A DNA stretch of 63,823 nt, filler included, from Collodictyon triciliatum (taxonomy: Eukaryota): assembly GCA_043381765.1 (NCBI GenBank). It is 15 parts of 15 records of this genome, joined end to end, with 100 filler letters (N's around TTAATTAATTAA, not from the genome) between each part and the next. Parts side by side here need not be neighbours in the genome. Positions count along the whole stretch, not along the records: positions 18,762 to 23,346 come from JBHJMP010005949.1; 14 more parts are not named here. One strand, given 5' to 3'. Positions within the stretch are counted from its first letter, which is position 1; every line of letters begins with the position of its first letter. Below are positions 19,780 to 23,452 of the stretch, in pieces. The translations under genes were made by a program, and so were the position numbers. The notes below the pieces were generated by a model. The model ran no database searches and was not told where the DNA came from. It saw only the letters and a program-made list of their open reading frames with translations.

Positions 19780-20985
19780 CTAGCTGTCTCCAGGCAAGGG
19801 AGGGAGTGTGGTTGGATCGATCATGAAGGCCGAGAAATCATAAAATTGAGGAACTTCGGCAAAGTTGAGGAAATCCCCGATGTGGTTGGTCACAAGATGG
19901 CAGTCAGGCCCCGGAGCAGCATTTGGGTTGCTGTCTTCATTGTGCTTGAAAGCCAGGCATTCCTTGTTGGCAAAGTTGGCGTAGATGGAGAAGCGTCCCT
20001 GATCATGAGCCCAGCGAATAATCCATTGCTCCCAAATATCGTCACCTAGCTTCAGATATTGCTCATTGGTTTTAAGGTTATCCACCGTGGGTTTGAATCC
20101 TGTCACTAGTCGGTGCTCGCGGAACCAGGTGCGGAAATCACGCCACGGTCCAGGAAACATTACTTGTCCAGAGCTACCCATCAATTGATAAGCCACTGGC
20201 ATGTTCCAATTCAGGATGGGGAGGCTTCCTTGCGGCTGGATTGAGGATGGAATCGTATTCAACATCTGTAATGAGACTCCAAAAATGCGCCGAAGGATTG
20301 GGTGCGATGGGCGGCAATAGTGGCTTGTTGCTATTTTCAGCCAGCGATAGAAGTAGGGCGAGACCTCGACGTTGTCTTCCACAAACAAGGCATACTCGTG
20401 AGGACTTAATGGAGTCCATGCTTCGAGCCACTGTCCCAGCCGACCGACGTTGAAAATGCGTTCGTGTACTTTCTTTGTTCCGTGGGGCCATTTCAGCTCT
20501 TCAATTGTAGACATGGTCGCCTCGTGGAGAGGCCAAAGGGATTCGATTTTGGACGTATCACTCTTTTCCTTGTTGGTGAAGGTATCCATGTCGCGAGGAA
20601 GGTCCAAATAAATATCAACGTCGACAGAATCCCCTTGGTAATCTACAGCAGTCAAGGATTTAAAGAGGCGGACGAGCGCGTCGGGTCTCTTGCTAGCAAA
20701 GACTTTGATCTTCAGTCGGAAAAGGTTCAGATCCACATCAGACTGAGCTGTTAGTTTGTAATGTGTCGCTTCGATCAAGTCCTTTCTGGTTCGCGTTAGC
20801 TCCCGATTCAGATGTAGGTCGAATTCATAGTTTTCCTTGAAGTCAAGCTCTGGATCTAAAATTCCTGCGCCGTTGCTATTTACAAGGCCGCCGTCGGGTG
20901 CCTGCCTGTCTGCAAGGCAAAGGGTTGCGCTGAGTACAGCCCACAGCAGTAGAAGTAAGGGAAGGCCTTTGAAGCTGGCCTTCAT
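19780..20985 (-). CDS. Secretory-pathway GT-A fold (GT2-like) glycosyltransferase-like protein, intronless
   Basis: 401-aa ORF with an N-terminal hydrophobic signal. Motifs VFASKRPDALVRLFKSL..DY.GD, WPHGTK, GQWLEAW, ALFVEDNVEVSPYFYRWL and G..MFPGPWRDF match an uncharacterised GT2-like family seen in plants, fungi and protists. Confidence 0.75.
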   Translation of the reverse strand: MKASFKGLPLLLLLWAVLSATLCLADRQAPDGGLVNSNGAGILDPELDFKENYEFDLHLNRELTRTRKDLIEATHYKLTAQSDVDLNLFRLKIKVFASKRPDALVRLFKSLTAVDYQGDSVDVDIYLDLPRDMDTFTNKEKSDTSKIESLWPLHEATMSTIEELKWPHGTKKVHERIFNVGRLGQWLEAWTPLSPHEYALFVEDNVEVSPYFYRWLKIATSHYCRPSHPILRRIFGVSLQMLNTIPSSIQPQGSLPILNWNMPVAYQLMGSSGQVMFPGPWRDFRTWFREHRLVTGFKPTVDNLKTNEQYLKLGDDIWEQWIIRWAHDQGRFSIYANFANKECLAFKHNEDSNPNAAPGPDCHLVTNHIGDFLNFAEVPQFYDFSAFMIDPTTLPPLPGDS

Positions 20986-21954
20986 CGTGGTCTATGAACT
21001 ACGGTGAATAGGTCAGTAGTTGTCCGTTTTAGCCCCACGTGTGCTTGTCTGGCCCTTTCTTCAGCATAACGAGCGATGGGGTTGGTTTTTGATTACGCTT
21101 CAGCCCGTACGCTAACTAAACTTACACGAGCATACTTTGAATCGAAGATAGAATGTGGGAAAGAAAAACAACCTTTCACAGGCATAACTCAAACAAGATT
21201 ATTTGAAGGCGGAAAAGACTCGCTCTTTGGTTGCATCCACCAAGCACCAAATATTCAACAGAACACAGAAAGAAAGGAAAGAATACTTGGGGAAGGAGAA
21301 AAGATTGATATTGTGGGTGATCCTTCCGTTGTAGATTAGTGCCGATCACAGGGAAAAGCCTTGTGGCGCTCTGTTGCTCTCAAAGAAGAGGACGAAATGC
21401 AGGCAGGACTTCCTCTTGGTCTAGAGTCCTACAACCTCACCCAATGCACACTAACCAACGTGAACTAGAGGCTGCTCCATATATATTCCCGCGCCCATAC
21501 ACACACGTAGTATGTAACAGCGGAGAACAAGATCAAGGCAGACGTGGCCCATATGTTTTCAAACAGTGTGAATAGCATAGGGAGGGGTGGCACAGTCTCG
21601 CCTTACCTTGTGTTATTTTTCCTGTGGGGACATAACAACATAGCAGGTTGATTACAAGGGCATGGGCAGGCCTAGGTTTGCCACACAACAGGGAATCAGC
21701 TTCCCCAAGTCTACCGCGCCTGGCTGCTGGGTGCACTCTGTGCCTTTGACTTTGTTTGAATAGAACCAGTTTGGCCACGAGACAGTTTCGCTATGCCCGA
21801 GCCACGAACAAGAACCAAAANNNNNNNNNNNNNNNNNNNNNNNNNNNNNNNNNNNNNNNNNNNNNNNNNNNNNNNNNNNNNNNNNNNNNNNNNNNNNNNN
21901 NNNNNNNNNNNNNNNNCAAAGGGAAACTGGATATTCATTGAATATATACTAAAG

Positions 21955-22164
21955 TGGATTTATCCAAATGGGACAAACATGGCGCATTGGTAGGGAATTG
22001 TTGCTAGGGGGCGTAATGGACGAGAGAGCTTTCACATTTATTAACGAAGTAGTATATCAATCAAAAGATTGGTAAACATGGTCCGCTAGTATCCAAGTTC
22101 CCACCACTTTTTTTCACTATGGCCATGTAGTGGTGAAGACTGCCAGGAAAGACCCGACAGCCTA
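21955..22164 (-). ncRNA. Candidate Fanzor omegaRNA (fRNA) scaffold
   Basis: Starts right after the Fanzor stop. Hairpin GGCUGUCGGG-ucuuu-CCUGGCAGUC (22162-22138; 10 bp with 3 G-U pairs, forms fully only on the minus strand), stem CACCACU/AGUGGUG (22135-22102), and CAAUC-uuuu-GAUUG (22071-22058). Confidence 0.5.
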
Positions 22165-22815
22165 TTATTTAGAGGACGGTGTATGCATTTTTTGAAGGAT
22201 TGAAAGAACTTTCTTGAGTATATCATTATCGCTGTTAAAGTCCCTTGTCAAGAGTATACTTTGTTTGCTTTCTGAGCGATTGCATTCTTTACATGTGAGA
22301 CATCTATATATTTTTTTTGAATTTCCATTCGGTTTCATACAATCCAGTTCTTTTTCGCAGCTACAGCACATCTTGAATGTTCTAAATTCATCTACACTAA
22401 CTGTTTCAAAACGTTTGGATAGTATTTTTCGTAATCCTCTTCCGATTGTTGGCATCAAATGCTTCATCGGAGATTTTCTGCTCCAGTCTCCATACGCCAG
22501 TACAACATCCTTCACAAATGTCTTTTCGATTCGGTCCATAAACAACTCTTCACTTCTTTTTGTGTTAACATACTGTATCCATCTCATCTTTCGAAAAGTT
22601 ACGTGTTCATAAAATCTGCAAAATTCTATCTGATATCATGGTTTCATAGATACATATTTTCGAAATTTTCCATAATCGAACATGCATGAATTATGCTTAC
22701 TCATTTCTGCCTCTAAATCGATTAAAGATGCTCTAGATGTCTCAAACTACTGATTCTCTTCAAAAGTCCTGGCACCAAAAGAAACAACACTTTGTAAATC
22801 TGCTGCCATGTATAC
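22165..22815 (-). pseudogene. Fanzor1 (TnpB-family RNA-guided RuvC nuclease), degenerate C-terminal half
   Basis: Translation LIDLEAEMSKHNS..DYGKFRKYV..*..FYEHVTFRKMRWIQYVNTKRSEELFMDRIEKTF..VVLAYGDWSRKSPMKHLMPTIGRGLRKILSKRFETVSVDEFRTFKMCCSC..IYRCLTCKEC..TRDFNS shows RuvC-II (DE), a CxxC..CxxC zinc ribbon and RuvC-III (RDxN). In-frame TGA at 22636-22638 and TAG at 22747-22749. RuvC-I and the N-terminal half are not visible. Confidence 0.88.
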
Positions 22816-23452
22816 CCCTGACGAATTGTACTTTTCTTTTTTTTTTCTTGCGCAAGAGTATTTTGTGATTTTTTTTATACTGTTCCTCTCAACTCTGTAT
22901 TTGTCTCAGTGTGATAACTACATTTAATCACATTGCGACATATAGAATATATTAAACTAGGAAGTTTCCATTCACGCCAACAAACAAACCTTGCAAATTT
23001 CGCATTTATTATTTGAACTGAAAGGATATCAGAGAAATGAAAATGAAAGAAAAAATGCAGATTCTGGGTGTGGTGTCTATATAATCTTTTGTTCTTGTAG
23101 TTGCTGGTATCGCGATTTCTTGGGGGATGTGTGACTCGCACGATAGAGGCGCGAGTTGGTTGTGAGGGTCAACCAAGTGACTGTTCCACCTGAAACGAAG
23201 AAAGAAGAGGAAAAGCACCATTAATTGTATATTGTTTATACTCCAACCCTCATTAGTCTACCTGTTAACACTATTTTTCCACTTTTTTTTTTTTTTTGTA
23301 AGTATCACAAGCTCTCACCAACACAGGTCGACCAAAGGCGGGCACCNNNNNNNNNNNNNNNNNNNNNNNNNNNNNNNNNNNNNNNNNNNNTTAATTAATT
23401 AANNNNNNNNNNNNNNNNNNNNNNNNNNNNNNNNNNNNNNNNNNNNGAGAGA

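Follow-up and report, generated by a model that had tools for sequence, protein, structure and literature searches.

The window analyzed here, a 63,823-nucleotide stretch of DNA from Collodictyon triciliatum, is a chain of ~4.6-kb contigs linked by N44-TTAATTAATTAA-N44, and because the contigs are joined by such linkers, neighbors across them are not true neighbors. One contig carries on its minus strand a dead copy of a Fanzor1 element, ~954 bp long, in which a left end (22997-22874) is joined to the final 830 bp of the element, and whose decayed right end forms a cluster of hairpins. The copy is flanked by a probable 14-bp target-site duplication with 13 of 14 letters shared between 22998-23011 and 22043-22030, both of which abut element ends. 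The 5' copy of the duplication (22998-23011, minus strand) holds AATAAA at 23010-23005, and the 3' copy (22030-22043, minus strand) would supply the start of a guide. The left end (22874-22997, minus strand; ~124 bp) has a GTTT-rich start and matches the 5' ends of other family members. It is followed by an internal deletion junction within an A-run (22872-22875, minus strand), at which ~2.5 kb including the gene start and the RuvC-I aspartate was lost, and the sequence upstream of this junction continues in all 29 other copies compared. The copy was also considered as a 5'-truncated element, and this description was rejected because both ends are present together with an internal deletion. 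A 403-aa host open reading frame with a signal-peptide-like start occupies 19780-20991 on the minus strand; it had no match in Pfam, and its product is presumably glycosyltransferase-like.

The C-terminal part of the broken gene extends over 22114-22873 on the minus strand and is interrupted by in-frame stops. A 156-aa frame preceding the hairpins matched PpFz1, GtFz1 and SpuFz1 and no other Fanzor, Fanzor2 included, and a profile built from 56 relatives recovered the same three proteins with E values of 1e-47 or better. The RuvC-II glutamate, the C4 zinc finger and the RuvC-III RD are retained, with an E six residues before a CxxC and an RDFN motif in frame. From its RuvC domain with a late glutamate, C4 zinc finger and RD, the gene adjoining the hairpins is assigned to Fanzor1. 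This copy lacks the gene start and RuvC-I and cannot make the protein, and its own scaffold is eroded; its divergence from the family majority is 9.4%, against 6-9.5% for other copies.

The element belongs to a Fanzor1 family of ~3.4 kb with hundreds of decayed copies in this genome. A DNA search returned 386 candidate copies, of which the best 40 were scored and were 86-89% identical, and a protein search returned 624 candidates, of which 150 were scored. Copies with two ends mostly measured 3.1-4.2 kb and contained internal microsatellites. All copies were broken, the longest stop-free aligned piece among 124 loci being 311 aa. A tree of 90 copies was star-like, which suggests one burst followed by decay. 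The RuvC-I motif read DAG in 36 of 48 family matches and not the usual DPG, with the aspartate kept. An intact 648-aa relative sharing 65% identity, P0001, has DPG at residue 364, and the match of the window copy to it begins at residue 403. Two sequencing runs, taken by guess as RNA and available as contigs, contain many copies of the family. In family copies a AAAATTGA motif was found ~50 nt before the Fanzor start (e.g. L033, near 105), where the window copy is deleted; its letters presumably coincide with those of the mimivirus early promoter. Several Fanzor pieces (L393, L394 and L420; flanks of L006 and L044) are immediately preceded by a different repeat, which ends in AATAAAGG and an A-run and looks like a SINE-type element.

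Directly beyond the 156-aa frame, the initial annotation had described three hairpins in the Fanzor sense orientation, and all three are present there on the minus strand. Stem-loop 1 (22137-22163, minus strand) has the contiguous 10-bp stem that had been reported (22162-22153 with 22147-22138; loop 22152-22148), extended to 11 bp by the pair 22163-22137, and includes the three G-U pairs 22161/22139, 22157/22143 and 22155/22145; across 116 family copies, in which it is coding, 93% of its cells were paired. Stem-loop 2 (22102-22136, minus strand) consists of an outer stem, in which CACCACU (22135-22129) pairs with AGUGGUG (22108-22102), an inner stem that is altered in the window copy, and an A-rich bulge. 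The middle segment (22077-22100, minus strand) may form a weak third stem-loop or, via ACUAG at 22090-22086, the 5' arm of a closing stem. The terminal hairpin (22055-22074, minus strand) includes the pairing of CAAUC (22071-22067) with GAUUG (22062-22058) and has eight Watson-Crick pairs in the family. The right terminus (22044-22054, minus strand), at which the family ends in CTAG with T as the next base, is decayed in the window copy. Accordingly, the 3' limit originally set at 22058 was too short, as the conserved block continues for 14 nt to ~22044. Decay has broken two of six third-stem pairs, one terminal-hairpin pair and four of five closing-stem pairs in this copy. The middle segment also reads TTGG-ATAC-TAG (22096-22086), resembling the terminus TTGG-TATAC...CTAG (22060-22044), and is perhaps an old duplicated end.

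Folding of this stretch is strand-specific. In the sense orientation, 22058-22164 had a folding energy of -35.5 kcal/mol (z -2.85), matched by 2 of 200 shuffled sequences, whereas the opposite strand gave z -0.01 (92 of 200); a z of -2.85 or lower was reached by 2 of 173 other 107-nt stretches within the window. The wider interval 22200-21940, as initially proposed for folding, gave z -2.11 on the sense strand and z -1.44 on the antisense strand. Stem-loop 1 alone gave z -5.85 versus -1.17 on the other strand as RNA, and -4.59 versus -0.13 as single-stranded DNA. Since single-stranded DNA energies show the same strand asymmetry (-5.4 versus -1.0), the asymmetry identifies the strand and not the molecule. 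An Rfam search of the hairpin stretch gave no match up to E 5.

Comparison across the family revised the end of the gene. The TAA TAG at 22167-22162, previously taken as the stop, is a product of decay: position 22167 is A in 107 of 115 copies and 22164 is C in 69 and T in 30; roughly one copy in four (30 of 115) has the TAG at 22164. In most copies the reading frame runs 16 codons further than in the window copy, to 22116-22114, and the protein of the intact relative P0001 also reads through. Stem-loop 1 and half of stem-loop 2 are therefore coding in the family. Alignment of 115 ends showed conservation up to CTAG|T (~22044) and then a sharp loss, the scaffold being conserved and the flank beyond it, the putative guide, variable. 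CTAG was present in 68 of 129 right ends, and the following base was T in 90 of 97 clean ends. Five pairs of copies (L008/L127, L125/L140, L132/L162, L168/L169 and L022/L129) are alike over 15-40 nt of 3' flank and diverge beyond it, which may reflect fuzzy right ends, or duplication or recombination.

The family majority sequence of this 120-nt stretch folded with z -5.3 in the sense and -3.5 in the antisense orientation, and single copies had mean z values of -2.4 and -1.35, respectively, with the sense strand better in 90 of 115. The predicted fold contains stem-loop 1, stem-loop 2 with its A-rich bulge, the 8-bp terminal hairpin, and either the third stem or a closing stem of 5 bp in which ACUAG (22090-22086) pairs with the terminal CTAG and the T that comes next. 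In less decayed copies the minimum-energy fold closes this stem at the element end. Of all the helices it is the one least often maintained (80% paired). Resemblance to most of the viral relatives suggested a GGUCU/AGACC helix in competition with stem 1; the analysis did not discriminate between this helix and two other registers. In P0001, two amino-acid changes fall within the 3' arm of stem 1, and from the protein both are deduced to suit pairing: the Ala-to-Thr change with certainty, as it puts A opposite U of the stem, and the Leu-to-Ser change if the codon is TCN.

The initial annotation had further proposed that the G-U asymmetry reflects selection on RNA structure, for which support is weak. 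Two G-U pairs of hairpin 1 are ancestral and family-wide (111 and 97 of 116 copies), whereas the third, found in 13 of 116, arose by C-to-T decay. Another pair falls on a synonymous codon position and reads U-G in 56 copies and C-G in 50. Transitions in hairpin 1 that make G-U pairs numbered 45 against 34 making A-C, and the asymmetry is shared by single-stranded DNA. Over five helices the corresponding counts were 239 and 177 (p 0.003), among copies that are not independent; the excess stems from a few shared variants and is reversed in two helices. The proposed covariation test, run on 116 family copies, found none (score 0.110 versus 0.112 shuffled), as is expected of dead copies. RNAalifold returned no consensus structure for the aligned sequences, and paired sites were hardly better kept than unpaired ones (median change 0.069 versus 0.073). 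These results bear on whether a GC-rich coding tail folds by accident and C-to-T decay made its G-U pairs. Such an origin would fit the one decay-derived pair, the lack of covariation and the two background stretches that fold as well, but two of the G-U pairs are ancestral, and the final 120 nt are covered by four helices as far as the element end. Moreover, the family majority folds far better than the window copy, which means that decay has worn the fold down and is not its source. We consider an accidental fold very unlikely.

Taken together, these data make it quite probable that the stretch is where a Fanzor1 transposon encoded its omegaRNA scaffold, here preserved in a dead copy. The original scaffold proposal is supported by position, namely the last 120 nt of the element, overlapping the 3' end of the reading frame by 16 codons and reaching the right end of the element, and by sense-strand folding; it gains nothing from covariation within the family, and the scaffold stays a candidate. 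In the accounts available in part, Fanzor1 proteins bind RNA from the right end of the element, and for every Fanzor tested the protein-bound RNA maps to this site. In an active ancestor, a transcript would cover the last part of the Fanzor gene and extend beyond the right end of the element. The RNA produced would comprise a scaffold of ~120 nt (stem-loop 1, stem-loop 2 and the terminal hairpin) and then a flank-encoded guide. The scaffold would be closed by the 5-bp ACUAG/CUAGU stem using the fixed T after the element end, which would place the guide start at +2; without this stem, the guide would open with 8-10 fixed element bases. Fanzor would bind the scaffold RNA and cleave DNA that matches, for instance at empty sites. 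Should the third stem form as well, the closing stem would be a pseudoknot; Fanzor1 is reported, in sources accessible in part, to be without a pseudoknot, and a fixed flanking base within the scaffold is described for IS607 TnpB in similarly partial sources.

The candidate most likely represents one more Fanzor1 omegaRNA, a known kind of feature, and resembles that of GtFz1. According to the accessible parts of PMC10432273 and PMC11423790, GtFz1 RNA is 150 nt long with four stem-loops and overlaps 17 codons, close to the 16 codons here. Both scaffolds have four helices in 120-135 nt and a terminal stem followed by a flank-encoded guide, an order also seen in the three solved Fz1 RNAs as given in Table S3 of PMC11423790. 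Neither element has clear inverted repeats or a transposase, as far as the GtFz1 element is described there. They differ in that the first stem is 10-11 bp in the family and 7 in the available GtFz1 structure, with no sequence likeness by eye, and in that the scaffold in the window is known from sequence alone, in a dead copy.

The possible distribution of comparable 3' ends was explored with the 56-protein alignment, which found 80 viral and 80 metagenome loci with 103 distinct 3' ends; a viral scan with the 156-aa fragment had found no relative, and a gapped pattern search for stem 1 gave one unrelated match only. The closest proteins with available DNA were giant-virus relatives with 38-47% identity to P0001. 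Like the family, these Tc1/mariner (IS630-like) Fanzor1 elements (L232-L391; class as given in the accessible text of PMC3627910) have a structured 3' end overlapping the reading frame, and in both an A-rich bulge ends in AAAGU. Unlike the family, they end in mariner-type terminal inverted repeats with TA, and L232 has a DDE transposase; the family lacks inverted repeats and ends in CTAG|T, and its left and right ends are not inverted copies, in contrast to L232, L234 and L313. The viral 3' end, unlike that of the family, covaries: 7 of 9 pairs of a two-helix core had double changes in 24 sequences, with 92% paired and 0 of 500 shuffles as good, the structure having been read off the same 24 sequences, which fall in two main clades. 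This shows that a selected RNA fold exists at the same place, the gene 3' end, in the lineage, a point in favor of the omegaRNA reading. The core of L232-L391 comprises two helices, an invariant CA/AAAGU internal loop, an AUC/GAU hairpin, UUUAC and optional hairpin inserts; L236 is its minimal form. A covariance model from 14 viral cores gave no match on the window copy and 19 weak matches in the window. Among 39 other loci it gave one match (E 0.0003), in an unexpected register, and ~13 of 28 weak matches at other loci fell on the scaffold sense strand. Sequence profiles (nhmmer) of viral 3' ends and the family scaffold did not match in either direction. Homology of the viral core to the scaffold in the window is thus not established, its statistical signal being below significance.

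The terminal hairpin showed an unusual polymorphism. Its UUUU loop, as annotated, is present in the window copy but is a derived, inverted form of the GAAA loop of the family: the loop is CGAAAG-like in 89 of 116 copies and the reverse complement in 27, including the window copy (22067-22062). Loop orientation showed no linkage with 18 of the 19 further variable sites examined and required 20 changes on the 90-row tree, no fewer than with shuffled labels, six of them forced by well-supported branches. The sister copies L009 and L186 (support 100/99) share a 3' flank and carry opposite loops. Flipped loops occurred in 13 of 26 short copies versus 19 of 85 others (p 0.012, pooled and post hoc), and within each of the two ways of finding copies p was 0.08 and 0.14, giving only a hint that the flip is commoner in shortened copies. 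Micro-inversions between inverted repeats are known (in the accessible part of PMC8755829), and recombination among copies could have scattered one old flip. The literature searched, with most subscription papers outside the search, held no account of loop inversion in a Helitron hairpin.

This hairpin also bears on the class of the transposon. The hairpins might function as single-stranded DNA structures when the element is copied by a rolling-circle, Helitron-like process. In that case CTAG|T and the last hairpin would serve as terminator or origin, hairpins 1-2 would be coding by-products or also DNA signals, and no guide RNA would be needed. The 3' end fits the Helitron1 pattern given in the available text of PMC3627910, with a hairpin ~11 nt before CTRR and T as the next base. 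The last hairpin is purely Watson-Crick, folds on both strands and has an invertible loop; copies hold the 3' end while the 5' part is lost down to ~20-70 nt; and the genome encodes a Helitron Rep/helicase. The latter is a 1194-aa open frame running off its contig (L081/L112; G000:C6377), with decayed pieces in L113, L114, L159 and L160. However, the 5' TC after A of Helitron1 was absent from the 43 left ends viewed, which start TTTGCA-like or blurred. Neither family end was found at any of eight Rep/helicase loci, several of which are short contigs, and a scan for a hairpin plus CTRR downstream of these loci gave no convincing end. Some copies have target duplications: a broad test on 41 copies found no excess, and among 15 two-ended copies true flank pairs beat permuted ones (p 0.004; 0.026 without the window copy). 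A purely rolling-circle role would also leave stems 1-2 unexplained at the site where all tested Fanzor1 keep their RNA, and such a role of the last hairpin is compatible with an omegaRNA; we regard it as unlikely to account for the hairpins. The terminal inverted repeats and TA duplication of Tc1/mariner elements were absent from the family. Given the missing 5' TC, the missing shared-end partner and the signs of duplication, the class is not fixed by the 3' end of Helitron1 form.

The nearest described cases, in publications accessible in part, are CRe-1 and MCi-2. CRe-1/2/3, Helitron2 elements of Chlamydomonas reinhardtii (PMC3627910, PMC10530073), likewise contain Fanzor1 only and show kept 3' ends, 5' truncations, internal deletions, a subterminal hairpin and variable target duplications in only some copies. 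As described there, the ends of the CRe elements agree with those of verified Helitrons and their insertions follow TTTT, whereas the family ends in CTAG|T and has ATAAA in its flanks. MCi-2A/2D of Mucor circinelloides, in the same partial text of PMC3627910, also carry Fanzor1 without inverted repeats, with fuzzy 5' ends and 11-12-bp AT-rich target duplications, but the duplication pattern differs from that of the family and MCi-2A carries a partial Crypton transposase. Replitron-1, as far as its available description goes, has similarly fuzzy ends.

The 12 bases after the element end were A/T-rich. ATAAA occurred there in 39 of 97 copies versus 6 and 7 further out, AATAAA in 25 of 97 versus 2-4 further out, and the reverse complement of AATAAA in one; ATAAA also followed the end in 9 of 17 further copies, and TAAA preceded 6 of 15 left ends. 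In run X1, taken by guess as RNA, one contig terminates at 22991 with 21 loose T's, 13 nt after the AATAAA at 23010-23005. As a single weak hint, this end could be a poly(A) tail and the AATAAA insertion site a host poly(A) signal, suggesting that a host transcript from upstream terminates a few nucleotides within the left end of the element. The literature covered, most subscription papers being outside the search, gave no relevant account of transposon target preference at AATAAA. The frequent AATAAA beyond the end, together with the overlap of stems 1-2 with the last codons and stop, would also suit a 3'-end element of the Fanzor message acting in stability, processing or translation control in place of a guide scaffold. 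Against this, the region is protein-bound RNA in the Fanzors tested in the partly accessible reports; the two roles could coexist, and a message element as the sole role seems highly improbable.

Returning to the omegaRNA scaffold, a broader scenario can be drawn, which we hold to be doubtful. Fanzor1 from a mariner-type lineage would reside in an element without terminal inverted repeats, the last 30 nt of which would double as guide-RNA stem and DNA replication terminus. Copying would flip the loop in roughly one insertion out of four, at a higher rate among shortened copies. Insertion would take place in one orientation, target host poly(A) signals and duplicate 11-14 bp; each guide would then contain an AAUAAA, which could set the RNA 3' end.

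A scaffold in a dead copy is of modest use in itself, though the precise ends of the element can be read from the family, which also leads to the intact relative P0001. How Fanzor-only elements without inverted repeats move is an open question in the accessible text of PMC3627910 and PMC10288648. If they hold, the recurrent loop inversion and the oriented preference for poly(A)-signal-like sites would be measurable footprints of the mechanism of movement, and these side observations would matter more than the scaffold.
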